DNA of 64,000 bases from a virus (taxonomy: Duplodnaviria > Caudoviricetes): the IMG/VR virus record IMGVR_UViG_3300037067_027649, positions 1 through 64,000 of that record; one strand, written 5' to 3'. The notes under the pieces were generated by a model, which ran no database searches, had not been told where the DNA came from, and saw only the letters and a list, made by a program, of their open reading frames with translations. Made by a program: the position numbers and the translations under genes. Shown one piece after another: positions 1 through 59,476 of this stretch (its first letter is position 1; each line of letters starts with the position of its first letter).

Positions 1-315
1 TCATATAAGTATATCTTTAATTTTCTTCTTTCTAAGAAATTTATTATATGTTTTTATAAAATCTGGTTTGTAGCTTATTTTTGAAGTATTAAAATATGTA
101 AAATAATATTTATTAAATTTACAGTATATGTATTCTTTATTATAGTAATATATATGTTCTGTATCATCAATTACTGTTATCAAGTTATCATTTTCATATT
201 TTTGTATAATTTCAGAATTTTCATTCGAATATAAATTCGTTAAAAATTTCTCAATTTCTTCATTTTTAATAATTGAAAAACTTGTTATAGTTAACGTGTT
301 TTTAATTTTTTCCAT
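1..315 (-). CDS. Hypothetical protein, paralog family A, with C-terminal RxxK[IL]xxI tag
   Basis: Ends FLRKKKIKDILI; similar layout to the next two ORFs; stop at window edge. Confidence 0.7.
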   Translation of the reverse strand: MEKIKNTLTITSFSIIKNEEIEKFLTNLYSNENSEIIQKYENDNLITVIDDTEHIYYYNKEYIYCKFNKYYFTYFNTSKISYKPDFIKTYNKFLRKKKIKDILI

Positions 316-316
316 T

Positions 317-643
317 TTACTCTAAAATATTTATTTTTTTAATTTTTTCTTTTCTAATATATTTAGAATAAGCTTTCATTACATCTATATCTATGTCTTT
401 TATTGATTTCTTAAAATCGTTAACATTTAAGTTAATAACACCAAAAACTGGTTCTGGCTGTTCACCTAAAAGATAAATATATAATACAACATCTTCACTA
501 TAAAAATAAATATCACCCACATAATAAGGACATAAAAATCTTTCTTTTAAAAATTTTTTAATATTTTCTTCATTAGAAAATATATTATAAATATAATTAT
601 TATCTAAACCTGTATTATATCTTAATGACAAATTATACTTCAT
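317..643 (-). CDS. Hypothetical protein, family A, C-terminal tag
   Basis: Shares NIFS.....KFLKE.FLC with 633..965; ends YIRKEKIKKINILE. Confidence 0.75.
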   Translation of the reverse strand: MKYNLSLRYNTGLDNNYIYNIFSNEENIKKFLKERFLCPYYVGDIYFYSEDVVLYIYLLGEQPEPVFGVINLNVNDFKKSIKDIDIDVMKAYSKYIRKEKIKKINILE

Positions 644-965
644 TCATCAATTTTTTAATTTTATTTTTTCTAATATAATTACGATGTGAATTTATAATTT
701 TATTATTTATACCATTTATATCATTCTGATAATTAAAATCAGAAATTTTATATTCTAAGATAGAATAATCATAGTAATTAGTAAGAAAAATGTTTAATAC
801 ATATTTTTCGTTAAAATAATATATTTTACTTTTATTAAAATTACATAAAAAATTTTCTTTTAAAAATTTTTCACTACTTTTTTTATCAGAAAAAATTTGT
901 CTTATATTATATTTTTCCTGATCTGTTAATTTTGAAAATAAATTTATATCGTAATTAATTAACAT
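633..965 (-). CDS. Hypothetical protein, family A, C-terminal tag
   Basis: Paralog of 317..643; ends YIRKNKIKKLMNEV. Confidence 0.75.
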   Translation of the reverse strand: MLINYDINLFSKLTDQEKYNIRQIFSDKKSSEKFLKENFLCNFNKSKIYYFNEKYVLNIFLTNYYDYSILEYKISDFNYQNDINGINNKIINSHRNYIRKNKIKKLMNEV

Positions 966-968
966 ATA

Positions 969-1310
969 TTATTTAGTAATTTCTTTTAATTTTTCTATTC
1001 TATCAATTTTATATTTATCTTTAGTATAAAATCTATATAAAAAATCATCAATAATTTTAAAATTATCATAATAATATTCAATTGTTATTCTTGGATATCC
1101 TTCTTCTCTAATAGTGGTTATATAAAATTTTAAATCTTCTATTTTAAGATGATATTCTTTAACATTAAAATCTTTAAATTTTCCACTCTTGATATAAACA
1201 TTAGCCACTATTTTAGCAGTATTTATTTTATCATTATTGAAAGTTATTATTTCAATGTCATGAAATATATTTTCAGTTATATCATATTTTGAGATGTTAT
1301 ATATCTCCAT
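969..1310 (-). CDS. Hypothetical protein, family B, C-terminal tag
   Basis: Shares D.FLY.FY.KD..I..R..K with 1320..1697; ends DRIEKLKEITK. Confidence 0.75.
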   Translation of the reverse strand: MEIYNISKYDITENIFHDIEIITFNNDKINTAKIVANVYIKSGKFKDFNVKEYHLKIEDLKFYITTIREEGYPRITIEYYYDNFKIIDDFLYRFYTKDKYKIDRIEKLKEITK

Positions 1311-1319
1311 ATACTTCTT

Positions 1320-1697
1320 TTATTTTATTATTTTTTCTATTTTTATCATTCTTTCCACAATCTTTCTATCTTTTTCATAAAAATAATAAAGAAAATTTTC
1401 ATGAATAATATATTTTGTGTAAACACCTTCAAATCTCCAAAATGGTTTTTTTTTTTTTTTTTTCGTTTGATAATAAAAAAAACTATCTTTTAATATAGAT
1501 AAATAAACTAATACATCTTTAGTATAATTTATATTTAAATCTTTATCATTGTGTACAACAGTTAATGCTTTAGCTATTTCAATTTTTTCCTCAGTTACAC
1601 CATCTTCTATTGATATGTGAATAATATTAAGTGGTAATTGTATTTTACCATTTTGTATATATTTAGTCAAATCATATTTTTTATAAAAAGTCCTCAT
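1320..1697 (-). CDS. Hypothetical protein, family B, C-terminal tag, in-frame A18 tract
   Basis: Ends ERMIKIEKIIK; T18 on + strand at 1446-1463 encodes K6. Confidence 0.7.
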   Translation of the reverse strand: MRTFYKKYDLTKYIQNGKIQLPLNIIHISIEDGVTEEKIEIAKALTVVHNDKDLNINYTKDVLVYLSILKDSFFYYQTKKKKKKPFWRFEGVYTKYIIHENFLYYFYEKDRKIVERMIKIEKIIK

Positions 1698-1719
1698 GTA
1701 CTTATATCTATATCAAATT

Positions 1720-2097
1720 TTAACATAAAATATTTTTTATTTTCATTTTTCTTTGAAAGATAATTTTTTCTTTTTTATCAGTGAATATGTAAAGTGTATT
1801 ATCAACAACCATATAATTTTCATAATTATAATTCGCAGTGTTTCCTGAACTAAATGATATTTTAAATCCATTACCAAAAGAATATACACTTTCTGGTATT
1901 GTACCATTTTCATATAAAGATATCAATACAGCAGATTCTATTATATGATTTTCAAAATTTTTAGGTATACCTTTATAATATGTAACTGTTATATGATTTT
2001 CAAAATTTTTAGGTAAACCTTTATAATATGTAACTGTTGTTGGAACACCCCACAAACCATTTTCTTGTTTCTTTGTTTTTATGATATATTCAGTCAT
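1720..2097 (-). CDS. Hypothetical protein, family B, C-terminal tag, internal 16-aa duplication
   Basis: TVTYYKG(L/I)PKNFENHI twice; ends QRKMKIKNILC. Confidence 0.75.
   Translation of the reverse strand: MTEYIIKTKKQENGLWGVPTTVTYYKGLPKNFENHITVTYYKGIPKNFENHIIESAVLISLYENGTIPESVYSFGNGFKISFSSGNTANYNYENYMVVDNTLYIFTDKKEKIIFQRKMKIKNILC
1943..2038. repeat. 48-bp tandem duplication (2 copies, 1 mismatch)
   Basis: ATATGATTTTCAAAATTTTTAGGTA(T/A)ACCTTTATAATATGTAACTGTT at 1943 and 1991. Confidence 0.9.
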
Positions 2098-2441
2098 GAT
2101 ATTTTATTAATTTTCAATTTTCTAATTAAATTAAGCTTTTCTTTTTTATTCTCAAAAACATAAAAACAATTATCATCTAATAAATAATCATCATAAAAAT
2201 AAGCTAACCTAGTTACATGTATTCTTAATAAAAATTCAACATCTATTGATTTTTCAAAAACAGTAACTTTTAATCTATCATATGAATATATTATTGGATC
2301 AATATCATTAATAAAATATATTATAGCATTAATTAATTTTTTTGTATATTCATCAAGATTGATAGGTTTATTATTAATAATAGTATGTTTTTTTGATGAT
2401 AAGGCTTCATCTAAATCAAAATCTATTACAAATTTTTTCAT
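2094..2441 (-). CDS. Hypothetical protein, family B-like, C-terminal tag
   Basis: Y.YDDYLLDDNCFYVFE.KKEK..R; ends IRKLKINKIS. Confidence 0.7.
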   Translation of the reverse strand: MKKFVIDFDLDEALSSKKHTIINNKPINLDEYTKKLINAIIYFINDIDPIIYSYDRLKVTVFEKSIDVEFLLRIHVTRLAYFYDDYLLDDNCFYVFENKKEKLNLIRKLKINKIS

Positions 2442-2462
2442 ACATTTTTATCAGATATATTA

Positions 2463-2774
2463 TTAAATATCATCATCTTCAAATATTTTATCAATTTTTT
2501 CTTTTCTCTTTTTATCAACAATAACTTTATATTCACCATTTATTTTTTTAATAATAAGATCATGCTTTGTTTCATCAAAATCTTTATTATTTTCAAAAAA
2601 TTCATCCATAACATTTCTGATAGTGCTTTTTGTTTCTCTAAACGGGTCGAGAGGTTTTTTTCTTGTATTAATTGTATTAATTGTAATCCAATGGTCATTA
2701 GGTATTTGAGATGTAATACTATTAATTTGTTTAGTATTATATTTTTTTCTTTTATTTATCATATTTGAATTCAT
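2463..2774 (-). CDS. Hypothetical protein, family C, C-terminal tag
   Basis: DLIIKKINGEYKVIVDKKRKEKIDKIF shared with next three ORFs. Confidence 0.8.
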   Translation of the reverse strand: MNSNMINKRKKYNTKQINSITSQIPNDHWITINTINTRKKPLDPFRETKSTIRNVMDEFFENNKDFDETKHDLIIKKINGEYKVIVDKKRKEKIDKIFEDDDI

Positions 2775-2791
2775 AATTTAATAATTTAAAT

Positions 2792-3067
2792 TTATTTATT
2801 AAATATTTGTTTTAATTTTTCTTTACGTTTATTATCAATTATCACTTTATATTTACCATCTATTTTTTTGATGATTATATCCTTTTTTTCAAAATCAAAA
2901 ATTTCATTTTTATCAATAAATTCTTCAACTGCTTCATCTATTTTTTTTCTAAAAATATCCTTTTTACTATAAGGTTCTTTTTCAACATAAGAATCAGTCA
3001 AATAATCATCTCTTAATAAATTACCAAATATATGGTCTAAATCAAAGTCATCATTATCGCTATTCAT
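2792..3067 (-). CDS. Hypothetical protein, family C, C-terminal tag
   Basis: DIIIKKIDGKYKVIIDNKRKEKLKQIF. Confidence 0.8.
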   Translation of the reverse strand: MNSDNDDFDLDHIFGNLLRDDYLTDSYVEKEPYSKKDIFRKKIDEAVEEFIDKNEIFDFEKKDIIIKKIDGKYKVIIDNKRKEKLKQIFNK

Positions 3068-3329
3068 CTTCTTTAAATATTTGTTTTATTTTTTCATTTC
3101 TTTTCTTATCTAATGATGCTATATATTCACCATTTATTTTCCTGACAATTATATCTTTATCAGTAAAATCGTCATTTAAATTATCATTTAAGAATTTTTC
3201 AACAGCATCATTTATACCTTTTCTTACTTTTTCGTGTTTTGTTTCTAATGTTGTCTGAAATATTTCACGAAAATCATATCTCCAATTAGATGGTATTGGA
3301 AAATTTAATCTATTATCTTTATCATTCAT
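3060..3329 (-). CDS. Hypothetical protein, family C, C-terminal tag
   Basis: DIIVRKINGEYIASLDKKRNEKIKQIF. Confidence 0.8.
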   Translation of the reverse strand: MNDKDNRLNFPIPSNWRYDFREIFQTTLETKHEKVRKGINDAVEKFLNDNLNDDFTDKDIIVRKINGEYIASLDKKRNEKIKQIFKEDE

Positions 3330-3636
3330 CTTCTTTAAATATTTTTTTTATTTTTTCTTCTCTAATATTATTAACAGTAATTATAATTTCGTCACCATTT
3401 TTTGTTATTGTCAAGTTATTTTTCGAAAAATCAAAATCATCATTAGACATCAAAAAATCATCAAGATTATCAACTATAACATTTCTTATATCTCTCATTT
3501 TTGTAGAAAATGACTTTGAATTCTTTAAAGCTTCGAGTTGTTTTTTAAAATTATAATCTTTATATTTTTTTTTATAAAAACTTTCTTTAGATATAGAAAT
3601 TAATTTTTTTTCATTAAGAAATTCTGGTTTTTTCAT
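3322..3636 (-). CDS. Hypothetical protein, family C, C-terminal tag
   Basis: NLTITKNGDEIIITVNNIREEKIKKIF. Confidence 0.8.
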   Translation of the reverse strand: MKKPEFLNEKKLISISKESFYKKKYKDYNFKKQLEALKNSKSFSTKMRDIRNVIVDNLDDFLMSNDDFDFSKNNLTITKNGDEIIITVNNIREEKIKKIFKEDE

Positions 3637-3637
3637 A

Positions 3638-3952
3638 TTATATTTTATATTTTTCTTTGAAGAAATTATTTATTTTTTCAAAATCTGGTTCACCTTCAGA
3701 CATCATTTCTTTATCAAAAAAAGATTTCAGTTCATCATCATATTCAAGAACTTTCCAGAAATCTAATTTACAACAATCTCTTTCAATTGTTCTATCAAAA
3801 TCAGGTGTTAAATTGTTTTCTGAATTTTCATCAAAATCTAATTGTTTTTCACAAGATGATATATCACTATATATAGCTCCAAAATCGGAATCACCAACTT
3901 CTTCTGGTCTATATGAAAAACAAAAATTACAAGATTTATTTATCTTACACAT
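3638..3952 (-). CDS. Hypothetical Cys-containing protein
   Basis: CxxC near N-terminus; coupled in operon. Confidence 0.65.
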   Translation of the reverse strand: MCKINKSCNFCFSYRPEEVGDSDFGAIYSDISSCEKQLDFDENSENNLTPDFDRTIERDCCKLDFWKVLEYDDELKSFFDKEMMSEGEPDFEKINNFFKEKYKI

Positions 3953-3956
3953 ATAT

Positions 3957-4459: not shown

Positions 4460-4470
4460 TTTTTAAATTT

Positions 4471-7969: not shown

Positions 7970-9343
7970 AGAAAACCACGAAATCTTTAGTTTCGTGTAT
8001 GAATTTCAAATATAATAAAAATATTTTAAAAATTTACAAAAAAGAATAAAAAAGAAAAATAGACTATAAATATTTTATATATATGATTATAAAAAAGTAT
8101 ATATAAAAATTGAAAACATATCAAATAAGAATATTTCCAACAATTAATCAGATAAACCAATTAAAAGAATTATCTGATATAAGAAAAGATATTTGGAATA
8201 AGCTTTTAGATATAGAAGAAAATGAATATAAAACAAACAAAAAAATATTTAATAATTTCGATTTAAATAATATGCTTCCAGATTTAAAAGAACAACATAT
8301 AAATTGGAAGAAATTAAATTCAAAAGCAATACAAACAATATCATCAGAATTATATGGTTCTTATCGTTCATTTTTTAATTTAATAAAAAAAGATAAAACA
8401 GCAAGACCACCAAAGAAAATTCAAGATAATATTTTTCATACTATAAATTGGAATCAATCTGGTTGGATAATTAAAGATGATAATAAAATTATAATTAACA
8501 AAATATCATTTTACTATAAATCAAATTTAAATATTAAAACATTAAATATAAAAGAAATAAGAATAAAATATAAAAATAATAAATGGTTGTGTGATTTAGT
8601 AGTTGATAATAAAATAAAATATGAAGATATTTTAAATATAAAAACAAAAATTTTAGCAATAGATTTAGGTTTAGAAAAATTATGTCATGGTATTGATAAT
8701 AAAGGAAATGAAGTTATAATAAAAAATAAATCTAAGAATATAAATAAATATTTTCAAAAACAGATAAAAAAGATACAACAAAAAAGAAGTAAAACAGTTA
8801 AAGGTTCAAAACGAAATATAAAATTAAAAAAAGTTTTAAATAAATGTTATCATAAAAAGAATAGTCAAATAAAACAAACTCTACATATTCAGAGTAAAAA
8901 ATTAGTGAATATGAACTATAATACAATTATAGTTGGTGATTTGAGTGTTAAAAAATTGATGAATTCAGAAGGAATAAATAAAAATAAAAAAGGTGTTAGA
9001 AAATCATTTCATCATTCTAATATTAATATGTTTTTACAATTTCTTTCTTATAAATGTCAAGCAAAAAATATTAACTTAACAAAAATAGATGAAAAATGGA
9101 CTACACAGTTAAATTGTTTGACAGGAAAAATTTTTGATAAAAAAATTGAATTAAAAGATAGAAAAGTTCAATTATCAAACACCATTATTATTGATCGTGA
9201 TTTAAATTCAGCCATAAATATTTTAAACAGATGGTTTGAAAATCACTTTGCTTCTATGAACGAGCCACTTGATGTTTCAAGTGTTGTTAAAAAGTTTAAC
9301 CTTTTTAATGAAACTACTAAATCTTTAGTTTAGTTGTAGTTCA
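7970..9343 (+). mobile_element. tnpB-only IS200/IS605-family element
   Basis: Left-end hairpin CACGAAA-TCTTTAG-TTTCGTG (7977-7997), right-end hairpin ACTAAA-TCTTTAG-TTTAGT (9316-9334) ending TTCA; preceded by TTGAA; no tnpA. Confidence 0.85.
8110..9333 (+). CDS. tnpB: TnpB RNA-guided nuclease
   Basis: N-terminal HTH (RIFPTINQ...L), RuvC-I LAIDLG, RuvC-II IVGDL with downstream DE, RuvC-III DRDLNSAINI. Confidence 0.92.
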   Translation: MKTYQIRIFPTINQINQLKELSDIRKDIWNKLLDIEENEYKTNKKIFNNFDLNNMLPDLKEQHINWKKLNSKAIQTISSELYGSYRSFFNLIKKDKTARPPKKIQDNIFHTINWNQSGWIIKDDNKIIINKISFYYKSNLNIKTLNIKEIRIKYKNNKWLCDLVVDNKIKYEDILNIKTKILAIDLGLEKLCHGIDNKGNEVIIKNKSKNINKYFQKQIKKIQQKRSKTVKGSKRNIKLKKVLNKCYHKKNSQIKQTLHIQSKKLVNMNYNTIIVGDLSVKKLMNSEGINKNKKGVRKSFHHSNINMFLQFLSYKCQAKNINLTKIDEKWTTQLNCLTGKIFDKKIELKDRKVQLSNTIIIDRDLNSAINILNRWFENHFASMNEPLDVSSVVKKFNLFNETTKSLV

Positions 9344-9441: not shown

Positions 9442-10065
9442 TTAATTATTAATTTGGTTAATCTTTTCTAATCTTTTTAATTTTGTAACCTCTTCAAAAG
9501 TCAAATTAACTAACATTTTAACGGCAGTTTCATATTTTTTATGTAAATGATGATTATCATTTAATATACTTAAAGGTATTTTATGTTCTTTAAGAATTTT
9601 TTTATATTTACTCAAAATATTTTTTTCAAATATTTCTCTACTTATTTTATAATGAATTAACATAATGTTATGTGATGAATCCAAAAACTGGTCAAATGTA
9701 AACTTACTTATTTTATGATTATTTACATTTAATATAAAATATTCTAATTCTTCCTTTAATATTAAGAAAAATAAATAAAAAAATGAATTTCTTTCAAAAT
9801 TATCAAAACAAACATTTATTCCAAATGTGTCTGTAACAGGATAATTATAATTATAATTTAAATAATCATATTTTTCTGATTTCATATTGAATTTAATTAC
9901 AAAACTTGATTTGTTAATTTGTTTATAAACACCAGTTAAAGATATTTCATATTTTTCAAAATATGAATATAAATCATCATTTGAGTATTTTAGATAAACA
10001 CTCCTTGTTTGTTTAGTTTTATATTTTGTTATATTGACGTACACTTTATTATATTTAAAATACAA
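9442..10065 (-). CDS. Hypothetical protein with C-terminal tag
   Basis: Ends LKRLEKINQINN; start uncertain (TTG overlaps a TATATTTG motif). Confidence 0.7.
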   Translation of the reverse strand: MYFKYNKVYVNITKYKTKQTRSVYLKYSNDDLYSYFEKYEISLTGVYKQINKSSFVIKFNMKSEKYDYLNYNYNYPVTDTFGINVCFDNFERNSFFYLFFLILKEELEYFILNVNNHKISKFTFDQFLDSSHNIMLIHYKISREIFEKNILSKYKKILKEHKIPLSILNDNHHLHKKYETAVKMLVNLTFEEVTKLKRLEKINQINN

Positions 10066-13407: not shown

Positions 13408-13749
13408 TTATTTTTTATTTATTTGATCTATTTTATTTTTTCTTATACCAGATTTTGAATTACTAAAATTTAATTCTTTAATTTTTTTATAAAAAATTGG
13501 ACAATCATCTTGGATGTTTTCAATATCAGATAATTTAAACTCAAAATATGTATCAACATTATTATCATCGTCAATATATTCATCTGTTTTAAATTGTATA
13601 CCTAAGTTTTCAAGAGCCATATTAATTAAAAAATATGGTGTCATTTCATTTGATGTTGTAACTATTGTTATATTTCCTTTTCCATCTGCATACAATGAAC
13701 TAAAAAGATTATTTAATACAGAATCTACGGTTAAATTTATATTTTTCAT
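13408..13749 (-). CDS. Hypothetical protein with C-terminal tag
   Basis: Ends GIRKNKIDQINKK; TATATTTG upstream. Confidence 0.7.
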   Translation of the reverse strand: MKNINLTVDSVLNNLFSSLYADGKGNITIVTTSNEMTPYFLINMALENLGIQFKTDEYIDDDNNVDTYFEFKLSDIENIQDDCPIFYKKIKELNFSNSKSGIRKNKIDQINKK

Positions 13750-18004: not shown

Positions 18005-18280
18005 TTATAAAATATTTTTTAATTTCATTCTTCTTTTTAAAGAAATATCATCAGTATCCCAAAATTCACAAGGAATTTTTTCATCTAAGATTTTAAAACA
18101 ATTTTTACTTATTTCACAATCATCATTATATCCAAATATTTCAGAACCACTATATGCATGATATTTACATGAATGACATAATTTTAATTTAGGATTAAAA
18201 TTACATATTTTTTCATGTTCTTTAATCTTTTCTTTAGTTCCAGTTTCACTACAAAAATCACATTTCCAAACTAATTTCAT
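18005..18280 (-). CDS. Zn-finger-like protein with C-terminal tag
   Basis: WKCDFC...HEKIC.FNP...CHSCKY; ends KRRMKLKNIL. Confidence 0.75.
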   Translation of the reverse strand: MKLVWKCDFCSETGTKEKIKEHEKICNFNPKLKLCHSCKYHAYSGSEIFGYNDDCEISKNCFKILDEKIPCEFWDTDDISLKRRMKLKNIL

Positions 18281-18570
18281 TTATTTAAAATTTTATTAAT
18301 TTTAAGTTTTCTTTCTAATTTATTATTTTGTGCTTCCCAAAATTTACAAGGTATATTATTATCCATTATTATACTTTTGATGAATTTAGATTTTGGACAT
18401 GTAAAAAGAACTTCACAATTTTCATTTTCAGAATAATAATGATATTTACAAGTTGGACATAATTTATTTTTCAAATTATATACACAACTATCTTCATGTT
18501 TAGCTACAATTCGTCTACTTTTATCACTAAAATTACAATATTTATATTTACATTTCCAAATTATTTCCAT
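18277..18570 (-). CDS. Zn-finger-like paralog with C-terminal tag
   Basis: Start moved to ATG 18570 (MEIIWKCKY); ends ERKLKINKILNK. Confidence 0.75.
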   Translation of the reverse strand: MEIIWKCKYKYCNFSDKSRRIVAKHEDSCVYNLKNKLCPTCKYHYYSENENCEVLFTCPKSKFIKSIIMDNNIPCKFWEAQNNKLERKLKINKILNK

Positions 18571-27067: not shown

Positions 27068-27514
27068 TTATTTATTTATTTTTTTTAATTTTTCTTTTCT
27101 TTCTTCAATTAACATTTCTCTTTCTTCATCAATTAATTTAATATCTTGTAATATACCTTTTTTAAATTTTACTTCAAATGTATAAAATTTTTTATTGTTA
27201 TCTTCACCATAAAATCTAAATTTACCTGTATATTTTTTATTAACTATTCTTTCATTTACTCTTTTAATACAACCCATTAAACTTTTAATTCCAGTTGCAT
27301 TTGGATATGGTCTTTCTTCTGGTGGAACAGATTCATATTTCCATTTTGCTATTTTAAGTTCTTTTTCTTTAGTAATATAAATTTCAGTTAATATACAATC
27401 AAAATCTTTAGTTTGTAACTCATAACTTTTCTTAAAAGAATTTTTTTCTTTTTCTGATATAGGTAATATATCAATATCTTCTATTATAACTCTATCAAAC
27501 ATTCCCATAATCAA
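27068..27514 (-). CDS. Conserved phage protein with C-terminal tag
   Basis: MGMFD...LQTKDFDC; ends EERKEKLKKINK. Confidence 0.75.
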   Translation of the reverse strand: MIMGMFDRVIIEDIDILPISEKEKNSFKKSYELQTKDFDCILTEIYITKEKELKIAKWKYESVPPEERPYPNATGIKSLMGCIKRVNERIVNKKYTGKFRFYGEDNNKKFYTFEVKFKKGILQDIKLIDEEREMLIEERKEKLKKINK

Positions 27515-30582: not shown

Positions 30583-31026
30583 TTAAATTATTTTTTCAAG
30601 TTTTCTATTTCTAATATAAGAATTCATTTTACCTAAAATTATATTTTTATGATTATTTTCAATTATTGATAACATATTATTATCATCAAATAATTCTATA
30701 TTTTTTAATATTTTTGAATCATAATATTCTTCATTATATAATGAATAAAACCAATATAATTGATAACCTACTATATCATAAATAACTTCAACAAAACCAA
30801 ATCTTTCTATATATGTATCATCAATAAATTCACATAACGAATTTTTAATAGAACTTTTTTCATAAATATAATATAAATGATTTAAATATAATTCATTCAT
30901 AAAATTAATATATTCATCAAATGTTAAAAAATCAAAATATAAATCATCATATTCTTTATGTATAAATAAATATTTTTTATTAGTTTTATTAAAATATTTT
31001 AATATACTATCAGATTTTAACTTCAT
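30583..31026 (-). CDS. Hypothetical protein with C-terminal tag
   Basis: Ends YIRNRKLEKII. Confidence 0.7.
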   Translation of the reverse strand: MKLKSDSILKYFNKTNKKYLFIHKEYDDLYFDFLTFDEYINFMNELYLNHLYYIYEKSSIKNSLCEFIDDTYIERFGFVEVIYDIVGYQLYWFYSLYNEEYYDSKILKNIELFDDNNMLSIIENNHKNIILGKMNSYIRNRKLEKII

Positions 31027-35038: not shown

Positions 35039-35245
35039 TTAAAAATCAACTTTGTCATCAAAAATTTCTTTTATTTTTCGAGTTCGTTGTATCTTTTTAA
35101 TTTTTTTAAAAAAATCATCATTTACAACCGTTTCAACCATATGTGGATATAATGATGTAAAATCCATATTAATATTTACTTTTTTATTTTGTTTCTTATT
35201 TTTTTGTTTATTCATCATCTTTAAAAATTTCTTTAATTTTTTCAA
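35039..35245 (-). CDS. Small protein with C-terminal tag
   Basis: Contains DFTSLYP, which resembles PolB motif A, but is only 68 aa; ends QRTRKIKEIFDD. Confidence 0.55.
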   Translation of the reverse strand: MKKLKKFLKMMNKQKNKKQNKKVNINMDFTSLYPHMVETVVNDDFFKKIKKIQRTRKIKEIFDDKVDF

Positions 35246-35380
35246 TTCGTTTCATTCTTTTATTGATTTTATTTATCATATCAAAAGTTTTAGATAATTG
35301 TTCTTTATTATATTTTGATTTTTTAATATTTATTAAATCAAAATGATCTATTATTATTAAATTATCTCTCATTTTTTAAA

Positions 35381-51853: not shown

Positions 51854-52165
51854 TGAACTACTACTAAACTAAAGATTTAGCAGTTTCACGTTTCACAGAC
51901 TTCTCCAACGAGAACGCCTCACCGTGTTTTTGTTTAAAGTCCAACTTGCGTTCCACAACCAGACTATTTTTTTAAATTAAAATTTTTACTTTTTTGATTT
52001 TACGTGTTTTAAGATTTTAAAACACAACCAAATATATCAAAGAACTTTTTTATAAATTTATATATTAAATATTTTGGGTCTAAAAATGGTTTTTTTAAAT
52101 ATTTTTATTATATTTGAATAAAATTTTGAAATTCATCTACGAAACTAAAGATTTCGTAGTTTTCT
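51854..52165 (-). mobile_element. Non-autonomous 312-bp derivative of the IS200/605 element (no ORF)
   Basis: Left end 38/41 and right end 32/34 identical to the tnpB element ends; also preceded by TTGAA. Confidence 0.88.
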
Positions 52166-52471
52166 TTCAACAAAAATATAAATTTTATCAATTCTTTCAT
52201 TACTTAAATATGACATTTTAATGTTTTTAATATTTAGAAATTTTTTAATTGATTTTTCTAATATTTCTTTACTTTCTATCATTGTTAAATTGTAGGTAAA
52301 TTGTAATCTTTCATAAATGAGGTTGTAACAATAAACTCTATTGTTTTCTATATTATATTCTAAAACAATATTGGTATCTTTTATGTAAAAAACTGAATTT
52401 GAATATTTTTCTAATTTAAGTTTCTTTAAATCAGATAACCAAAATTTTATGAAATTTTCTTTAGTTTTCAT
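52145..52471 (-). CDS. Hypothetical protein, family D; last 6 residues come from the inserted element
   Basis: ...IFVE|RKLRNL*; the empty site would read IFVE*. Confidence 0.7.
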   Translation of the reverse strand: MKTKENFIKFWLSDLKKLKLEKYSNSVFYIKDTNIVLEYNIENNRVYCYNLIYERLQFTYNLTMIESKEILEKSIKKFLNIKNIKMSYLSNERIDKIYIFVERKLRNL

Positions 52472-52785
52472 TATAATTTTTTATTTATGTTTTCAATCAT
52501 ACCAACATCAATATTATCATCTTTAAATATTTTATTTAATTTTAGTTTTCTATATTCTTTTAATGATATAAATCTATCTTCATCGAAATAAAAATCTAAT
52601 TTTTCTATTATTTTTACTAATTTTCCTATTCCACTTGTTTTTATATCAATAATTTTATATTTTTTTCCTTTTTTTAAATATAAAAGAGCATTATGAAATT
52701 CAGTATCATATTCACCTATTGAATCTGGTATAATGTTATTAGATACACAAACAACCGTTTCGCCTATTTTAAAATTGTTATTCAT
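52471..52785 (-). CDS. SH3/KOW-like family E protein with C-terminal tag
   Basis: FKIGETVVCV...LKKGKKYKI.DI...RFISLKEYRKLKLNKI. Confidence 0.75.
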   Translation of the reverse strand: MNNNFKIGETVVCVSNNIIPDSIGEYDTEFHNALLYLKKGKKYKIIDIKTSGIGKLVKIIEKLDFYFDEDRFISLKEYRKLKLNKIFKDDNIDVGMIENINKKL

Positions 52786-52996
52786 CTAAAATTTTATTAA
52801 TCTTTTGTTTTCTCAAATCTTTTTTTGTTTTAAAAACATATTTTATTATTCGTATAGTATTACCTTTATGATTAAACCAAAGATATCCAAAATTATTTAC
52901 ATCAACAATTGTGTATTCTTTATATTTTTCAAAATATGGTTGTTCATCATCACCAATGTAAACAACTTTATCACCAATTTTATAATTATATTTCAT
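52778..52996 (-). CDS. SH3/KOW-like family E protein with tag
   Basis: YKIGDKVVY...KYKEYTIVDV...DLRKQKINKIL. Confidence 0.75.
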   Translation of the reverse strand: MKYNYKIGDKVVYIGDDEQPYFEKYKEYTIVDVNNFGYLWFNHKGNTIRIIKYVFKTKKDLRKQKINKILDE

Positions 52997-53213
52997 TTAA
53001 AATTTTATTAATCTTTTGTTTTCTCAAATCTTTTAATGTTATAAAATTTTTTTTATTATATGAACATAGTACATTATTATCATTTATTAATACAATAAAA
53101 ATATCATCAGGAATATTACAGATTTTATATTTTTTATACAATTTTATATATTGATAAGCAGAATTATCAACACATAATACTATATCATCTTTTTTAAATT
53201 TATTTTTATTCAT
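52986..53213 (-). CDS. SH3/KOW-like family E protein with tag
   Basis: FKKDDIVLCV...LYKKYKI...DLRKQKINKIL. Confidence 0.75.
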   Translation of the reverse strand: MNKNKFKKDDIVLCVDNSAYQYIKLYKKYKICNIPDDIFIVLINDNNVLCSYNKKNFITLKDLRKQKINKILNEI

Positions 53214-53514
53214 TTAAAATTAAATTTAATTTTAAAATTTTTAATTTTCTTAAATTCTTTTCATTTATTAAAAATATATCTTTATCACCTAAAATGTTTT
53301 TTTCTTCATCTGTTGCAAGTCTTATATGTTGATAATATAATGAATTATGAGATTTTGCTGTAGTTTTATAATTATATCCAGCTATTTGTTTTGTAATTCT
53401 TGTTATACAAGGTTGTTCACCACGCCAAACTATAATATCACCCTTTATATAAATATGATATGATCCAAATGGTGTGTTTGGTTTATATAAAAATTTTTCT
53501 ACATTATTATTCAT
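53206..53514 (-). CDS. Hypothetical protein with tag
   Basis: IRLAT.EE motif; ends NLRKLKILKL. Confidence 0.7.
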   Translation of the reverse strand: MNNNVEKFLYKPNTPFGSYHIYIKGDIIVWRGEQPCITRITKQIAGYNYKTTAKSHNSLYYQHIRLATDEEKNILGDKDIFLINEKNLRKLKILKLNLILNE

Positions 53515-53744
53515 TATTTAAATATTTTTTTAAGTTTTGTTACTCTTTCTTCATTTTTTGAATAAAAATTTGTTATTCTAAACCAAGAATGAATATTATC
53601 TATCATAATAAAAGTTTTTGTTAAATTTATTTTTATTATAGTATAATGTTTACCTATTTTTAGATTACTCATGTTAAGATCATATTTTATAGGTTCATTT
53701 TTAATACAAATAACTTTATCCCCTATTTTAAAATTATTATTCAT
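53514..53744 (-). CDS. SH3/KOW-like family E protein with tag
   Basis: FKIGDKVICI...LKIGKHYTI...ERVTKLKKIF. Confidence 0.75.
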   Translation of the reverse strand: MNNNFKIGDKVICIKNEPIKYDLNMSNLKIGKHYTIIKINLTKTFIMIDNIHSWFRITNFYSKNEERVTKLKKIFK

Positions 53745-53748
53745 TATA

Positions 53749-53756
53749 CAAATATA
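53749..53756 (-). promoter_or_regulatory. Bacteroidota-type -7 element TATATTTG
   Basis: Immediately upstream of ATG 53744 (very short leader). Confidence 0.5.
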
Positions 53757-53810
53757 ATATTTTTTTGTTAATATTAAAAAAATTTTATTATATTTACAAA
53801 AAAAATATAA

Positions 53811-54062
53811 ATGGATTTTAAAGAAGGTGATATTGTAGTTTGTATTAAAAAACCAGCTTTACAAAATTCAATTTTTGGTATACAATTGAATTTATATCAA
53901 AAATATAAAGTTGTTAGTGTTTATGTAAAAACTATATCAATATCTGATATTATATCAGATGATGATAATAAATTTATTCCTGTTCAAAATTTTAAAAAGA
54001 AATATTTCATATCTGAAAATGAATTTAGAAAAATGAAAATTAAAAAGATTTTACATGGATAA
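53811..54062 (+). CDS. SH3/KOW-like family E protein with tag
   Basis: FKEGDIVVCI...LYQKYKV...EFRKMKIKKIL. Confidence 0.75.
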   Translation: MDFKEGDIVVCIKKPALQNSIFGIQLNLYQKYKVVSVYVKTISISDIISDDDNKFIPVQNFKKKYFISENEFRKMKIKKILHG

Positions 54063-54342
54063 AAAATTTAAAATAGGAGATAAAGTTGTTTTAATTAATA
54101 AAAATGTATTAAACGATAAAGAAGATTTAAGTAGTAAAAATATAAAATCTAAATTAAATAATATTTTAAAAATAATAGAAATAGGTAAAATTTATATAAT
54201 TAAGGATATATTTAAATATGGTGATGATAAAATCCTCATAAAAATTAATGTAGACGAAAATTTTTATTTTAATAAAGATAGGTTTATATCACTAAAAGAA
54301 TATAGAAAACAAAAAATTAATAAAATAAATGAAAAATGTTAA
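54055..54342 (+). CDS. SH3/KOW-like family E protein with tag
   Basis: FKIGDKVV...IGKIYII.DI...RFISLKEYRKQKINKI. Confidence 0.75.
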   Translation: MDKKFKIGDKVVLINKNVLNDKEDLSSKNIKSKLNNILKIIEIGKIYIIKDIFKYGDDKILIKINVDENFYFNKDRFISLKEYRKQKINKINEKC

Positions 54343-55386: not shown

Positions 55387-55387
55387 T

Positions 55388-55585
55388 TTAGAATTTCTTC
55401 AATTTTATTTTTCTTATACTTTTAATATCTTTAAAAACCATACCAATATTACAAACATGATTACTATCACAAAAATTATTTTTTTTTAATATATAGCAGC
55501 CATCACAAACATTATTATTAAATTCTTCTTCAGTTTGTTTTACTAAATATAATTTAACACCTTTGTATGTTATAGATGTAGTCAT
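55388..55585 (-). CDS. Cys-rich family F protein with tag
   Basis: ITYKGVKLYLV...CDGC...C...C..GMVFK..RKIKL. Confidence 0.75.
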   Translation of the reverse strand: MTTSITYKGVKLYLVKQTEEEFNNNVCDGCYILKKNNFCDSNHVCNIGMVFKDIKSIRKIKLKKF

Positions 55586-55783
55586 TTATCTTAAAAATTC
55601 TTCAATTTTATTTTTTCTCAAATCTTTTTTTGTTTTAAAAACCATACCATCTATACATAGTAATTTAAAATATGATACCGAATTATTATTAAAATAACAA
55701 CCACCACATGTATGTGATTTACGTTCATCATAAGTTTGTTCTACAAGATATAATTTAATATCACCATAATGAAATTCTTTCAT
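55586..55783 (-). CDS. Cys-rich family F protein with tag
   Basis: CGGCYF...C.DGMVFKTKKDLRKNKI. Confidence 0.75.
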   Translation of the reverse strand: MKEFHYGDIKLYLVEQTYDERKSHTCGGCYFNNNSVSYFKLLCIDGMVFKTKKDLRKNKIEEFLR

Positions 55784-55790
55784 ATATTTT

Positions 55791-56054
55791 TTAAAATAAT
55801 AGATTAATACTTTTTGCTCTCATATAAGCTTGTGCAAGATGATCATCAAATAAACCTTTTTTTATTGACATTTTAGCAAAAATTAATCCAGATTTATAAT
55901 CTGATGGTTCATTACTAAACCTTGCTAATACTGTAGGTATTTGTTTAATTTTATCACAAAAATATAAATCTGCGCCATTAAAATTACCTAAAAATTTGCA
56001 ATAGTCACAATCATGCTTAAATTTTGGTTTTTGATTACTTGTTAAATTTTCCAT
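55791..56054 (-). CDS. Conserved hypothetical phage protein
   Basis: KPKFKHDCDYCKFLG....DLYFC...TVLARFSNEPSDY.SG. Confidence 0.75.
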   Translation of the reverse strand: MENLTSNQKPKFKHDCDYCKFLGNFNGADLYFCDKIKQIPTVLARFSNEPSDYKSGLIFAKMSIKKGLFDDHLAQAYMRAKSINLLF

Positions 56055-56059
56055 AATAT

Positions 56060-56269
56060 TTATTTTAAAATTTGTTTTATTTTATCTTTTCTTAATTCGG
56101 ATACTTTTTTATATACGGTGTCATTTGTACATTTAACATTTTTATTTTCAATACAATTAATAATATTTAATGAACAACCACCACAAAGACCATAAAAACT
56201 TTCAGATTCTTTTTGTCGAACTAATTTATATTTAACCCCATCAATAATTATATTATTATTTTTTATCAT
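56060..56269 (-). CDS. Cys-rich family F protein with tag
   Basis: IDGVKYKLV...CGGC...ELRKDKIKQI. Confidence 0.75.
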   Translation of the reverse strand: MIKNNNIIIDGVKYKLVRQKESESFYGLCGGCSLNIINCIENKNVKCTNDTVYKKVSELRKDKIKQILK

Positions 56270-56472
56270 TTAATATTTTTTTTTATTTTAGATTTACGTA
56301 TATCAGATAATTTTTTATATATTGTGTTATATTCGCATTTAATATTTTTAACATTAAGACAACTATATCCTTCAATATTAAATGAACAACCTTCACACAC
56401 TCCATCATTTATCGTTTGTTTTACTAGTTGATATTTAATGCCATCAACAATTATATGATTTTTTTTAGTCAT
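56266..56472 (-). CDS. Cys-rich family F protein with tag
   Basis: VDGIKYQLV...CEGCSF...DIRKSKI. Confidence 0.75.
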   Translation of the reverse strand: MTKKNHIIVDGIKYQLVKQTINDGVCEGCSFNIEGYSCLNVKNIKCEYNTIYKKLSDIRKSKIKKNIK

Positions 56473-56695
56473 TTAATATTTGATTTATTTTAAATTTTCT
56501 GATATTTTTTAACATTTTATAGTTATAATCTCTACCGCAAGTTATACCAAGTCTTATACATGATGGTAAAGAAAAAGCACATCCTTCACATGTGCAATAT
56601 TTTGTCATATTTTTAATATATGCAATATTATTTATGAATATTATATCTTCACTTTTCATTAAATAATTTTTTAATTTTTTCTTCTCTGAAATCAC
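56465..56695 (-). CDS. Cys-rich family F protein with tag
   Basis: CEGCAF...NIRKFKINQI. Confidence 0.7.
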   Translation of the reverse strand: MISEKKKLKNYLMKSEDIIFINNIAYIKNMTKYCTCEGCAFSLPSCIRLGITCGRDYNYKMLKNIRKFKINQILND

Positions 56696-57044
56696 TAACT
56701 TTTTTTAATATACCTTCACCACAGTATAACCAACAATTAGTTAACATTAATCCATCAACTGCACAATATCGACAAATTCCTTTATTTGGATTATCAACTA
56801 CATAATAATATGTACCATTTAAAAATACTTTTTTCATATTCCAAATATTTTTTAATTTTTTTTTTATTTCACTAACTTTTTTAAAAAAATATTTATCTTG
56901 ACAGTCAAACTCACTACCAATTTGACAATTATCACGACATATAAAATCTTTTATGTTTATAAAAAAACAACTTTTACAAGGATTATTATCATTAGTATGA
57001 ACTAATTCTAATTTAACACCTTTATATATAAATTGTTTTTCCAT
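56649..57044 (-). CDS. Two fused Cys-rich family F domains with tag
   Basis: Start moved to ATG 57044; second unit begins MKKVFLNG with no intervening stop. Confidence 0.65.
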   Translation of the reverse strand: MEKQFIYKGVKLELVHTNDNNPCKSCFFINIKDFICRDNCQIGSEFDCQDKYFFKKVSEIKKKLKNIWNMKKVFLNGTYYYVVDNPNKGICRYCAVDGLMLTNCWLYCGEGILKKVSDFREEKIKKLFNEK

Positions 57045-57051
57045 TAAAATA

Positions 57052-57648
57052 TTAAGATAAATAAGCCAAACATTTGTTTTTAGCTTCTGTGATTTCAATA
57101 AATTTATCTGAGTTACCACCTTTATCTGGATGATGTTGCATTGATAATTGTCGATATGCATTTTTAACATCATCTGTGGATGCTTCACTATCTAAACCTA
57201 AAACTTTAAAAGATTCAATAGGTTTATTGTCTTTTATCATAGATGCTAAAAGAAAATCCCAAAAAAATCCACTACCAAATCCAAACCCACCAAATTCTCT
57301 TCTTTCGAAATCTTCATATTCCCTACGTCTTTTATCACGTTCTTCTGCATCTTTTTTACGTTGTGCCATAACATCAGGAAATAATTCATTTCTTGTCTTT
57401 GCAATAACACTTGCATAAAAATAATTCCAAAGCTTATCAGGGAGAACACCTGCAGTTTTATTGCTAATTGCATCCCATTTCATTCTAATGGCACGAACAG
57501 CATTTTCATAACCTTTTATATTTTTTGTTGAATTACCAACCTCTAAAAGAGTTATAAAATCAAAAGTTAAATCAGAAATAAAACCGTTATGGTTGAAATT
57601 TACACCTTTATCAAGATTGTACTTTGAAACATATTCTTTTGTTTTCAT
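57052..57648 (-). CDS. J-domain (DnaJ-type) protein with C-terminal J domain
   Basis: FKVLGL...VKNAYRQLSMQHHPDKGG...F.EI.EA. Confidence 0.88.
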   Translation of the reverse strand: MKTKEYVSKYNLDKGVNFNHNGFISDLTFDFITLLEVGNSTKNIKGYENAVRAIRMKWDAISNKTAGVLPDKLWNYFYASVIAKTRNELFPDVMAQRKKDAEERDKRRREYEDFERREFGGFGFGSGFFWDFLLASMIKDNKPIESFKVLGLDSEASTDDVKNAYRQLSMQHHPDKGGNSDKFIEITEAKNKCLAYLS

Positions 57649-57653
57649 ATTTT

Positions 57654-57909
57654 TTAGATATTTAATTTTTTACAAATTTCATCAACACACTCATCATTTA
57701 ATTCACAAAAATTTCTTTTAATATTATCTTTAGATAAAGGTATATCTAAAATATTAAACATTTCAACTAAAAATGATATACCAACATCAAATACAGCTTC
57801 TGCTTCATCTTTAGAAACCCCCTTGGATGTATAATTTACCGCAGGTTTTACTTTTTTTTTCGTAAAAACTTTCTAATATTTTAATTTTATTTTCTACTTC
57901 TGTTGACAT
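57654..57909 (-). pseudogene. Small gene with +1 frameshift in an A9 run
   Basis: MSTEVENKIKILESFYEKK then shifted frame VKPAVNYTSKGVSKDEAEAVFDVG... Confidence 0.55.
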
Positions 57910-57929
57910 GTTTATTTGTATTTATTATA

Positions 57930-57937
57930 CAAATTTA
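57930..57937 (-). promoter_or_regulatory. Bacteroidota-type -7 element TAAATTTG
   Basis: 21 nt upstream of ATG 57909. Confidence 0.5.
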
Positions 57938-58008
57938 TAAAAATATTAACAAATAAAAAAATTATTCATATAATATTTTCATAAAATAGTGAAAATAAGT
58001 GTTTTTTA

Positions 58009-58266
58009 TTAAAAAAGTTTTAATTGATTTGGATTATCGTTTGGTTCTATTGTGTTATCCATTAGTAATTTTAAAAAATAATCAGCAGCATTATTGGCTA
58101 TAATGTGTTTATCTGTTCTATTTAAGTGCTTCTTTCCAGTTTTTTCTTTATACCATCTTTCACAATCTATATAAGCCATAGCAATATTAGCTTTCCAACC
58201 ATAGTAATATTCTTGGTCTTTTTTTAATTCTTTACTTAATCTTAATATAACATGCCTAATACTCAT
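58009..58266 (-). CDS. Hypothetical phage protein
   Basis: YYYGWKANIAMAY.D...AN.AA..FL.LL. Confidence 0.75.
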   Translation of the reverse strand: MSIRHVILRLSKELKKDQEYYYGWKANIAMAYIDCERWYKEKTGKKHLNRTDKHIIANNAADYFLKLLMDNTIEPNDNPNQLKLF

Positions 58267-58304
58267 AAATTATTATATTCATAAAATATTATTTTGTTTA
58301 ATTT

Positions 58305-58313
58305 TAATATATA
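58305..58313 (+). promoter_or_regulatory. Putative late promoter TAATATATA
   Basis: 24 nt upstream of ATG 58337. Confidence 0.6.
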
Positions 58314-58336
58314 ATAAAAAATATTTTATTTTTGTT

Positions 58337-58885
58337 ATGTATGTAAAATTATTCGAAAAATTCAATGAAAAATGGTATCATGGTTCAAAAGAATATTTTA
58401 CCGAATTTAAATTGAAAAAAGGTACTTTATTGGATTATAATTATATAGCTCCTATATTTTTAACAAGTGATAAAGAATTTGCTAAAGAACATGCAGGTTA
58501 TAAAACACCTTATATTTATGAAATTGAAGTTTTAACTGACAATATTTTTGATTATAAAAAATTACCATCTGGTTATAATCTAATGTATTATGTAGAAGAT
58601 AATATTAAAAAAGATAATAAAGATTATGAATTAGGTAAAAAATTATACATGGATATTTTTTTAGAAAATATTGATGTTAAACCATATTCATATCAAGATG
58701 TTGATGAATTATATAGTAGAATTATTACTGGTGATTATTGTTATTTAGAAGAAGTTTGGTTTTATGAGTGGTTAAAATTTAATAATTTTGATGGTGCTTA
58801 TATTAATGAAACAGGTGCTAAAAATTTATATATTTTTAACCCAAATGATTTAAAAATAATAAATGTGGAAAAATTAAATTATTAA
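58337..58885 (+). CDS. ADP-ribosyltransferase-like protein with capsid-targeting leader
   Basis: MYVKLFEKFNE; WYHGS...IFLTSD..FA..HA...IYE.EV...FDGA. Confidence 0.68.
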   Translation: MYVKLFEKFNEKWYHGSKEYFTEFKLKKGTLLDYNYIAPIFLTSDKEFAKEHAGYKTPYIYEIEVLTDNIFDYKKLPSGYNLMYYVEDNIKKDNKDYELGKKLYMDIFLENIDVKPYSYQDVDELYSRIITGDYCYLEEVWFYEWLKFNNFDGAYINETGAKNLYIFNPNDLKIINVEKLNY

Positions 58886-58895
58886 TTTTTCATTT

Positions 58896-59090
58896 TTATG
58901 CTTTGTTTATTTTTCTCAATTTTTGTTTTCTAATTTCTTTTATATCAATTTCTACATAATAACCATCATCACAATTAAATTTAGAACAATTCATACCATA
59001 AAATGCACATAAACCACACATATAACATATAGTATCTTCATTATGTTTTATAAATTTATAATATTTATTTTCATATTTAACAATTTCCAT
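58896..59090 (-). CDS. Cys-rich family F protein with tag
   Basis: CGLCAFYGMNCSKFNCDDGYY.EIDIKEIRKQKL. Confidence 0.78.
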   Translation of the reverse strand: MEIVKYENKYYKFIKHNEDTICYMCGLCAFYGMNCSKFNCDDGYYVEIDIKEIRKQKLRKINKA

Positions 59091-59274
59091 TATTAATTTT
59101 TTCTATTTTTTGTTTTCTAATTTCTTTTATATTAATTTCTACATAATATCCACCATCACAATTATATTTAGAACAAAACATATCATGACAAAATGCACAA
59201 TTAGTACAAGAAAAATCATAAAACGGATAATCAATAAATTTATAATATTTATCTTCGTATTTAATAATTTTCAT
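59077..59274 (-). CDS. Cys-rich family F protein with tag
   Basis: CTNCAF...CSKYNCDGGYY.EINIKEIRKQKI. Confidence 0.78.
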   Translation of the reverse strand: MKIIKYEDKYYKFIDYPFYDFSCTNCAFCHDMFCSKYNCDGGYYVEINIKEIRKQKIEKINNGNC

Positions 59275-59476
59275 TATTATTAATTTTTTCTAATTTTTGT
59301 TTTCTTATTTCTTTTATATCAATTTCAATAAAATAACCATTACTACAATCTAAAATTTCAAAATTTGTGTTAATACATTTTGAATTTACATATAAAGAAC
59401 ATGTAGAACAATTTACAAATATTGAGTTATCATTTATTTTTTTGTAATATTTACTTTTAAATTTTATTATATTCAT
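59261..59476 (-). CDS. Cys-rich family F protein with tag
   Basis: Start moved to ATG 59476; CSTCSL...C...C..GYF.EIDIKEIRKQKL. Confidence 0.75.
   Translation of the reverse strand: MNIIKFKSKYYKKINDNSIFVNCSTCSLYVNSKCINTNFEILDCSNGYFIEIDIKEIRKQKLEKINNNENY

Follow-up and report, generated by a model that had tools for sequence, protein, structure and literature searches.

Why do 35 small predicted proteins encoded on a single 64-kb stretch of viral DNA, belonging to many different families, end in the same short peptide? The stretch (the window; 64,000 nucleotides, positions 1 to 64,000 of IMG/VR virus record IMGVR_UViG_3300037067_027649; Duplodnaviria, Caudoviricetes) is the first 64 kb of one 78,963-bp virus contig with a G+C content of about 20%, and the peptide, referred to here as the tag, is the motif R-x-x-K-[IL]-x-x-[ILF] at or near the end of small open reading frames (ORFs). 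The tag is appended to proteins and passes from gene to gene, and we consider it moderately probable that it is a lineage-specific docking label that is read by one partner, with recruitment or localisation of the tagged proteins as the outcome.

ORFs of the whole contig were called mechanically (ATG starts, at least 40 amino acids, overlaps removed greedily; n = 140). The motif ended within 8 amino acids of the C-terminus in 33 of the 140 ORFs and occurred internally in one, whereas shuffling of whole proteins (n = 1000) gave a mean of 0.19 tagged ORFs (maximum 2) and shuffling of the last 30 amino acids only (n = 1000), which keeps the local K/I-rich composition, gave a mean of 0.37 (maximum 3). 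Both the tag and its C-terminal bias, as claimed in an earlier note made from the sequence alone, are therefore real. All 34 ORFs listed in that note were recovered, including 52471-52785, whose tail of 18 residues makes it an outlier, and 56266-56472, whose motif ends in N; the sixth gene of its 55388-57044 block is 56649-57044, and one ORF (35208-35372) had been missed, for a total of 35 tagged ORFs in the window plus a doubtful one (52145-52471). In a set of 34 of these ORFs, which includes neither 56649-57044 nor the doubtful one, the last position is I or L (31), F (2) or N (1), in agreement with the note; beyond this set, it is L in 56649-57044 and F in the doubtful ORF. The motif is followed by 0-8 residues in the window (18 once) and by 0-12 in relatives. 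The estimate of at least six unrelated families plus singletons proved conservative: after removal of the tag, the bodies fell into about 20 BLASTP clusters, and those of the array at 1..3636 alone into six BLAST clusters. Segments resembling transmembrane helices were found in none of 33 tagged and in 8 of 74 untagged small ORFs of the window. Searches of Pfam and PHROGs with ten tagged window proteins, and a tblastn search of 50,697 phage records with two, gave no match.

The window encodes a 1175-aa tail sheath, a T4-like baseplate protein, a sigma-70-type factor, an NAD-dependent ligase, an Hsp70, a J-domain protein and TnpB, and is a piece of an uncultured, Mahaphage-like huge phage. The best GenBank matches of its sheath are LR756501/LR756503 (735 kb, 49% identity), LR745206, LR756502 and LR756504; these, the largest phage genomes known, were assigned to the 'Mahaphage' clade, with replication predicted in Bacteroidetes (Al-Shayeb et al. 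2020, PMC7162821). A closer relative is IMGVR_UViG_3300035208_009193 (hereafter G001; 675,678 bp, 27% G+C, 98% complete by CheckV), the sheath of which is 67% identical to that of the window; the contig represents only about an eighth of one genome.

A scan of these related huge phages, in which tags were counted (unless noted) as ORFs with the motif ending within 12 amino acids of the C-terminus, found the tag in G001 (676 kb; 167 of 1135 ORFs, 149 of them within 8 amino acids, with about 2 in shuffles), LR745206 (635 kb; 116 of 945), LR756502 (642 kb; 109 of 979) and LR756504 (636 kb; 56 of 931), and only at chance level in LR756501 (735 kb; 2 of 1028) and LR756500 (462 kb; 3 of 690). Three of the four largest published phage genomes are thereby tagged on 6-12% of their ORFs. 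Internal matches in G001 (51 at more than 8, and 33 at more than 12 amino acids from the end, against 24.7 in shuffles) were not clearly enriched. Among tagged proteins, segments resembling transmembrane helices are rare. The 498 tagged bodies of five genomes formed 430 BLASTP clusters, and the 165 bodies of G001 formed 159; BLASTP is insensitive for such short proteins, and the true number of families is below 430. Most carriers in the window have no detectable homologue in G001. The cultured relatives Tenacibaculum phage PTm1 and Flavobacterium phage MaF61 showed no tags in the 50 kb sampled from each.

A signal in DNA or RNA (a promoter, ribosome-binding or coupling element), or a by-product of a K/I/N-rich composition, might be suspected in a genome of about 20% G+C with dense gene packing and frequent overlaps of stop and start codons. 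However, the shuffles yielded 0.2-0.4 tagged ORFs against the 33 observed, and codon usage points elsewhere. In the window, the invariant R is encoded by AGA (31), CGT (2) and CGA (2), and the I/L positions use five codons, which is the usage typical of the genome; across the tags of G001, the invariant R is encoded by all six Arg codons (AGA, AGG and all four CGN), hence selection acts on the protein and not on the DNA. The I/L positions use up to nine codons, and the motif is always in frame. It is also present at 25-32% G+C in the relatives and absent from LR756500 at 24% G+C. A DNA-level or compositional artefact is excluded by the codon and shuffle tests, and the chance that such an explanation holds is practically nil.

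That the tag is added to pre-existing proteins is seen in the family of the 146-aa tagged protein (27068-27508). This widespread family has 59 homologues in a collection of 5.8 billion proteins, and 56 of these stop right after the last beta strand (...AKFTDGKLVSIE) and lack the extension; only three proteins have the tag-bearing helix, namely that of the window, its G001 orthologue and a relative with 75% identity. In G001, a 237-aa Acb3-like protein (636116-636829, minus strand; E 2.6e-25; a family of CBASS inhibitors) matches positions 20-241 of the 245-position profile with its residues 17-218, and its tag, RMKKIETIY, starts at residue 228; no other tagged protein has a known anti-defence fold. 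Among the 100 largest tagged proteins of G001, Pfam matches were limited to one each for Acb3, ankyrin and DUF4987. Within the window, 30 nucleotides that encode VFKTKKDLRK at the start of the tag are identical between 52808-52837 (minus strand) and 55613-55642, and join an SH3-like gene to a Cys-rich gene whose bodies are otherwise unrelated; a second identity, of 37 nucleotides, links two diverged SH3-like neighbours (52787-52823 and 52998-53034). The gene at 56649-57044 (minus strand) is a head-to-tail fusion of two Cys-rich units, of which the terminal one ends in REEKIKKLF and the inner one carries IKKKLKNIW, without the invariant R; this decayed inner copy suggests that the motif is maintained only at a C-terminus.

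The AlphaFold2 model of 27068-27508 (mean predicted local distance difference test score, pLDDT, 92.3) has a beta-rich body and a terminal helix at residues 128-145, and Foldseek found no matching fold for it in the PDB. For 52778-52996 (pLDDT 88.7), a small beta-barrel of four main strands followed by a helix at residues 58-71 is predicted, which Foldseek matched to SH3, KOW, Tudor and PWWP domains with a probability of about 1. As modelled, the tag is a terminal helix on at least two different folds. Could the helix then serve its own protein, by capping small beta domains or driving dimers or tetramers, as an easy structural solution or the heritage of one ancestral family, with no reader involved? 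In both models it follows immediately on the last beta strand, at high confidence, C-terminal helices are frequent on barrels of the SH3-like, PWWP and chromo types, and many carriers are tandem paralogues (adjacent tagged pairs in G001 number 74 against 24.6 expected, i.e. arrays). However, the 56 of 59 homologues described above fold without the helix, the tag is also found on Acb3 and ankyrin proteins, the internalised copy in 56649-57044 has decayed, the entire set has vanished together from LR756501, and neither an invariant R and K on the hydrophobic face nor a genome-wide switch at one position, described below, would be expected of core packing. A purely intrinsic role is thus improbable.

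The residues of the motif are strictly held. The extended consensus of the 167 tags of G001 is [K/I/L](-4)-x-x-[I/E/L]-R-K-x-K-[I/L]-[K/E]-E-[I/L]-[F/L]-x-[D/E], numbered from the invariant R as position 0. Position 0 is R in 167 cases against K in 14, though K is three times commoner than R in the proteome; position 3 is K in 167 against R in 3, and position 4 is I or L in 167 against V, M, F, Y or W in 2. Alteration of the spacing of the motif abolishes the enrichment. In an alpha-helix, R0, K3, I/L4, I/L7 and L/F8 share one face. At position 6, 43% of the G001 tags have E, and those of the window have mostly K, Q or N. Position 1 is set lineage by lineage, as K in the window, G001 and LR756504, as D/E/N in LR745206 and as D/N/E in LR756502.

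These data bear on the notion of a generic amphipathic element that targets membranes or binds nucleic acids, like the MinD and FtsA membrane targeting sequences, which are likewise C-terminal, or like basic tails. The tag of the window is indeed basic and hydrophobic, with a mean net charge of +3.2. However, MinD- and FtsA-type sequences tolerate conservative substitutions, and the tag does not (167:14, 167:3 and 167:2 in G001): K rarely stands for R and R rarely for K; V, M or F do not stand in for I/L; and just two to three residues are hydrophobic. In LR745206 and LR756502, with D/E/N at position 1, the mean charge of the tag is only +1.5 to +1.7, and single D-type tags such as RDSKIDDIL have a zero or negative net charge (counted by hand). 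The strict identities at R0, K3 and I/L4 therefore fit recognition by a defined pocket, and do not fit a generic membrane helix or a basic nucleic-acid tail; we hold such a generic element, of either kind, to be very improbable, and the membrane option of the earlier note is disfavoured on the same grounds.

The tag has also been lost and, it appears, replaced. In trees of the sheath and baseplate proteins, LR756501 is sister to the window plus G001 (support 100/100 and 97/98), and LR756504 and the LR745206/LR756502 pair branch outside these three; the simplest reading is that the tag was ancestral to the group and was then lost wholesale in the 735-kb LR756501. In LR756501 a different motif, DP[YF]GE[EDN]xW, occurs 100 times in 86 of the 1028 ORFs (about 8%), of which 40 occurrences lie within 12 amino acids of the C-terminus, 19 within 40 amino acids of the N-terminus and the rest internally; it is found nowhere in the six other genomes examined. 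With both tags masked, only 18 of the 498 R..K-tagged bodies have a homologue in LR756501, compared with 865 of 3623 untagged proteins; along with the 430 clusters above, this indicates that bodies change while the tag is kept. The best match is a DPYGEExW protein for 4 of the 18 tagged bodies and for 17 of the 865 controls (odds ratio 14, Fisher p = 6e-4). The numbers are small, but they suggest that both tags label one class of proteins, with one label system having taken the place of the other. As a tag of a sister lineage that is mutually exclusive with the R..K tag and is borne by some homologous bodies, DPYGEExW is probably its functional counterpart, although it is acidic and aromatic, is placed at N-terminal, internal and C-terminal positions, and has no sequence similarity to the R..K tag. 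One LR756501 ORF (starting at 274789; 92 aa) is homologous to the tagged G001 gene 442763-443047 (...RRSKIRDIFKED) and ends in ...RRTKLIDEMTNK, which resembles a tag that has decayed by losing its last hydrophobic position.

For the docking label, the following course of events is proposed. The motif would be a portable short linear motif that forms a C-terminal alpha-helix of two to three turns, phi-R-[K]-x-K-[I/L]-x-x-[I/L]-[L/F], and would be appended to many unrelated, soluble, fast-evolving accessory proteins of huge phages of the Bacteroidetes type (Mahaphage). One common partner (a reader or hub, encoded by phage or host) would grip the R0/K3/I4/I7/L8 face through specific side-chain contacts, and all tagged proteins would be handled as one class, i.e. 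taken to one place or machine, with the variable bodies supplying individual activities such as target binding or anti-defence. We infer a single reader, and localisation or recruitment, not destruction, as the outcome. Recruitment is favoured because the tail after the motif varies, so that a free C-terminus is unlikely to be read, because the motif is the face of a helix and not an unstructured end, and because the replacing tag of the sister lineage works at any position in a protein. Of the earlier proposal of a portable docking or sorting helix, portability is borne out (by the extension of 27068-27508, the end of the Acb3-like protein, the 30-nt identity and the two folds); docking or sorting fits the strict residues, the K to D/N switch at position 1 and the replacement in the sister lineage, but the reader was not found.

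A broader picture is put forward more tentatively, as a possibility that we rate below even: addressing might be Mahaphage-wide, each lineage having its own label (R-K/D-x-K-I-x-x-I-L or DPYGEExW) and a dedicated, co-evolving reader, and accessory and anti-host proteins being gathered in one compartment, condensate or machine. The label would then stand on about a tenth or more of the genes, and a change of the reader would entail replacement of the whole set of labels.

Shared targeting peptides are known as a principle, and the tag may be compared with them. The T4 capsid targeting sequence (CTS; on IPI-III and Alt) is likewise a short peptide that unrelated phage proteins share as a group address to one destination; however, it is N-terminal, present on a handful of proteins and cut by the prohead protease after a [LI]-x-E site, whereas the tag is C-terminal (0-18 residues from the end), helical, present on 6-25% of ORFs and without a conserved protease site. 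Encapsulin cargo-loading peptides, read by the shell protein, are likewise C-terminal, short and portable among unrelated cargo, but have another consensus and are not basic helices, and no encapsulin-type shell is known for the tagged phages. Since short targeting peptides of this kind are an established mechanism in T4 and encapsulins, the tag might be a packaging signal, through which proteins are loaded into the capsid for injection; the huge capsids are roomy enough for many proteins, and the tagged proteins are small, soluble and not membrane proteins. Against this, 100-170 cargo species per genome would be without precedent, and the earlier sequence reading reports no tag on proteins with T4-like N-terminal leaders, which would form the packaging set. 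Nor is there a conserved I/L-x-E protease site (the E at position 6 of G001 tags is rarely found in the window) or a concentration of tags in structural modules: most flanks of related sheath genes hold 0-1 tags, though those of G001 and its close relatives hold 5-8. We give this explanation little credence.

Docking of unrelated proteins on one hub through a short C-terminal motif is also seen for the clamp-binding tails of T4/RB69 (gp43, gp33, gp55) and for PIP-box and beta-clamp motifs. The clamp-binding consensuses compared (the beta-clamp motif QL[SD]LF, the PIP box and the tails binding T4 gp45) are hydrophobic/acidic or of the type Q-x-x-L-x-x-F-F; the tag (R-K-x-K-I-x-x-I-L) does not match them, the matrix of the 167 G001 tags being R-K-x-K-[IL]-[KE]-E-[IL]-[FL] with neither Q nor an aromatic pair, and the likeness lies in the docking principle only. 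Carriers of clamp motifs are a few replication and transcription proteins, whereas those of the tag are more than 100 accessory proteins without assigned function. As is general for docking motifs, the tag is portable between unrelated domains.

Signals for AAA+ proteases (ssrA, MuA RRKKAI, the SspB XB peptide) are likewise short, C-terminal and directed to one machine, and the MuA-type ClpX signals are basic C-terminal peptides, the basic part of the MuA signal being followed by a hydrophobic residue. The tag could accordingly be a degron, in which an unfoldase of the Clp, Lon or FtsH type or an adaptor, from host or phage, reads the helix and clears the accessory proteins on schedule. Its strictly C-terminal location, 0-12 residues from the end, agrees with this, and so does a phage ClpS gene that all four complete tag-positive genomes carry and both tag-negative ones lack, and that is situated within a tagged array in G001. 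However, signals of the ssrA/MuA type act at or next to a free C-terminus and have no helical i, i+3, i+4, i+7 spacing, and the tag lies at a variable distance from the end (0-12 amino acids, 18 once). ClpS recognises N-terminal residues, and the phage copy retains the residues NDD...H, which we take to be the N-degron pocket; and the replacing tag of LR756501 often stands inside the protein or at its N-terminus, an unusual place for a terminal degron. ClpS further occurs on 253 IMG/VR viral contigs. Judged from flanks of up to 20 kb, the 77 loci outside the close relatives hold at most one tag each (0-1); in tag-positive genomes, 64% of 20-kb bins hold at least two tags and about 19% hold none. 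ClpS was thereby rejected as a tag-specific reader, and the degron is judged unlikely. Other copies of ClpS are located at LR745206 180414, LR756502 205052 and LR756504 200028.

Candidate readers were sought with G001 as reference, among families present in all four complete tag-positive and in neither of the two tag-negative genomes (BLASTP, tblastn and phmmer). This phyletic profile left six candidate families (Table 1), none of which was confirmed as reader and none of which is encoded on the contig of the window. Two of these, a membrane protein and a J-domain protein, are both restricted to tag-positive genomes, and the former is limited to 15 loci, on large contigs, and lies mostly 9-10 kb from the latter: this gap is found in three genomes (at 555652/564817 in LR745206, 531708/541712 in LR756502 and 533283/542678 in LR756504) and, by contig coordinates, on several IMG/VR contigs, whereas the two genes are far apart in G001. 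The local density of tags near their IMG/VR homologues is uninformative because about 19% of bins in tag-positive genomes are tagless. Charge-reversal columns in these two proteins and in ClpS were at chance level, with four sequences in two clades, and gave no signal. Two chaperone genes of the window were also considered. The J-domain protein at 57052-57648 (minus strand; 198 aa) consists of a C-terminal J domain and an N-terminal domain without known identity that is 62% identical in G001; it was rejected as reader, as the N-terminal domain is conserved only in G001 and the other tag-positive genomes match the J domain alone. The full-length Hsp70 at 60975-62843 (minus strand), which flanks tagged arrays and is 61% identical to that of LR756501, was rejected as it is present in the tag-negative LR756501 and was not found in the tag-positive G001.

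Several points weigh against the docking label with one reader. The search for a reader yielded none, and the phyletic profile is based on four tag-positive and two tag-negative genomes only; three of the six candidate families are nucleotide-handling enzymes, and the ClpS candidate is frequent on viral contigs without a tag nearby. The statistic for the exchange of tags rests on just four cases. The AlphaFold models do not distinguish a helix that is free from one that is packed on the body, and in SH3-like bodies a C-terminal helix can belong to the fold, the PWWP alignments spanning 72-73 columns. Finally, localisation and degradation are not told apart by the present data.

The earlier note knew of no described function for the tag, which agrees with limited full-text literature searches, in which no published description of it was found; no description of the DPYGEExW tag was found either, and the word 'C-terminal' does not occur in the paper that described these genomes (Al-Shayeb 2020, PMC7162821). 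As far as found, what is new is the motif itself, the extent of its use (6-25% of ORFs) and its replacement by lineage; the principle of shared targeting peptides, as in the T4 CTS, clamp-binding tails, degrons and encapsulin cargo peptides, is known.

In the largest phages known, between one in four and one in sixteen genes bear the label, nearly always on proteins of no known function. If there is one reader, finding it would give a shared fate (a place, a timing or a machine) to hundreds of 'dark matter' proteins, and would reveal a sorting principle in bacterial viruses; an addressing system, if true, would be what sorting signals are in cells, in viral form. The tag also serves as a handle by which the fast-evolving accessory set, including at least one anti-defence fold (Acb3), is picked out from sequence alone, and the concerted K-to-D switch together with the replacement by DPYGEExW provides a natural experiment in which co-evolution may point to the reader.

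Table 1. Tagged genes of the window and candidate reader families in G001
Feature	Sequence	Position	Strand	Size	Remarks
Array of 11 tagged small genes	window	1..3636	-		each gene product ends in R-x-x-K-[IL]-x-x-[IL] plus 1-6 residues
Members of this array	window	1-315, 317-643, 633-965, 969-1310, 1320-1697, 1720-2097, 2094-2441, 2463-2774, 2792-3067, 3060-3329, 3322-3636	-		
Tagged singleton	window	9442..9885	-		RLEKINQI, 2 aa before stop; possible start further upstream, 10065 (TTG)
Tagged singleton	window	13408..13749	-		RKNKIDQI, 3 aa before stop
Two tagged Cys-rich (zinc-ribbon-like) paralogues	window	18005-18280, 18277-18570	-		RRMKLKNIL, RKLKINKIL
Tagged protein with added helix	window	27068..27508	-	146 aa	RKEKLKKI; beta-rich body 1-126, added helix 128-145
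Tagged singleton	window	30583..31026	-		RNRKLEKII, 1 aa before stop
Two tagged mini-genes	window	35039-35218, 35208-35372	-		RTRKIKEIF, RIEKIKEIF
Seven tagged genes (52471..54342), six SH3-like: minus-strand members	window	52471-52785, 52778-52996, 52986-53213, 53206-53514, 53514-53744	-		
Same block: plus-strand members	window	53811-54062, 54055-54342	+		
Same block: doubtful eighth gene	window	52145-52471			RIDKIYIF
Six tagged Cys-rich genes	window	55388-55585, 55586-55783, 56060-56269, 56266-56472, 56465-56659, 56649-57044	-		
Three tagged Cys-rich paralogues	window	58896-59090, 59077-59274, 59261-59476	-		RKQK[LI].KIN
Candidate c1, membrane protein	G001	162895-164016		373 aa	C-terminal domain winged-helix-like (by eye)
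Candidate c2, 2H/Acb1-like phosphoesterase	G001	222268-222801		177 aa	
Candidate, AAA_28 kinase-like protein	G001	262709-263239		176 aa	
Candidate c3, J-domain protein	G001	286921-287571		216 aa	HPD motif
Candidate c4, ClpS homologue	G001	573782-574078	-	98 aa	PF02617, E 1.5e-14; within tagged array
Candidate c5, NUDIX hydrolase	G001	600119-600523		134 aa	

Apart from the tagged genes, the window carries at 8110-9333 (plus strand) a gene of the TnpB/IS605 OrfB type (HTH_OrfB_IS605, OrfB_IS605 and Cas12f1-like TNB), which lies on the strand opposite to its neighbours.

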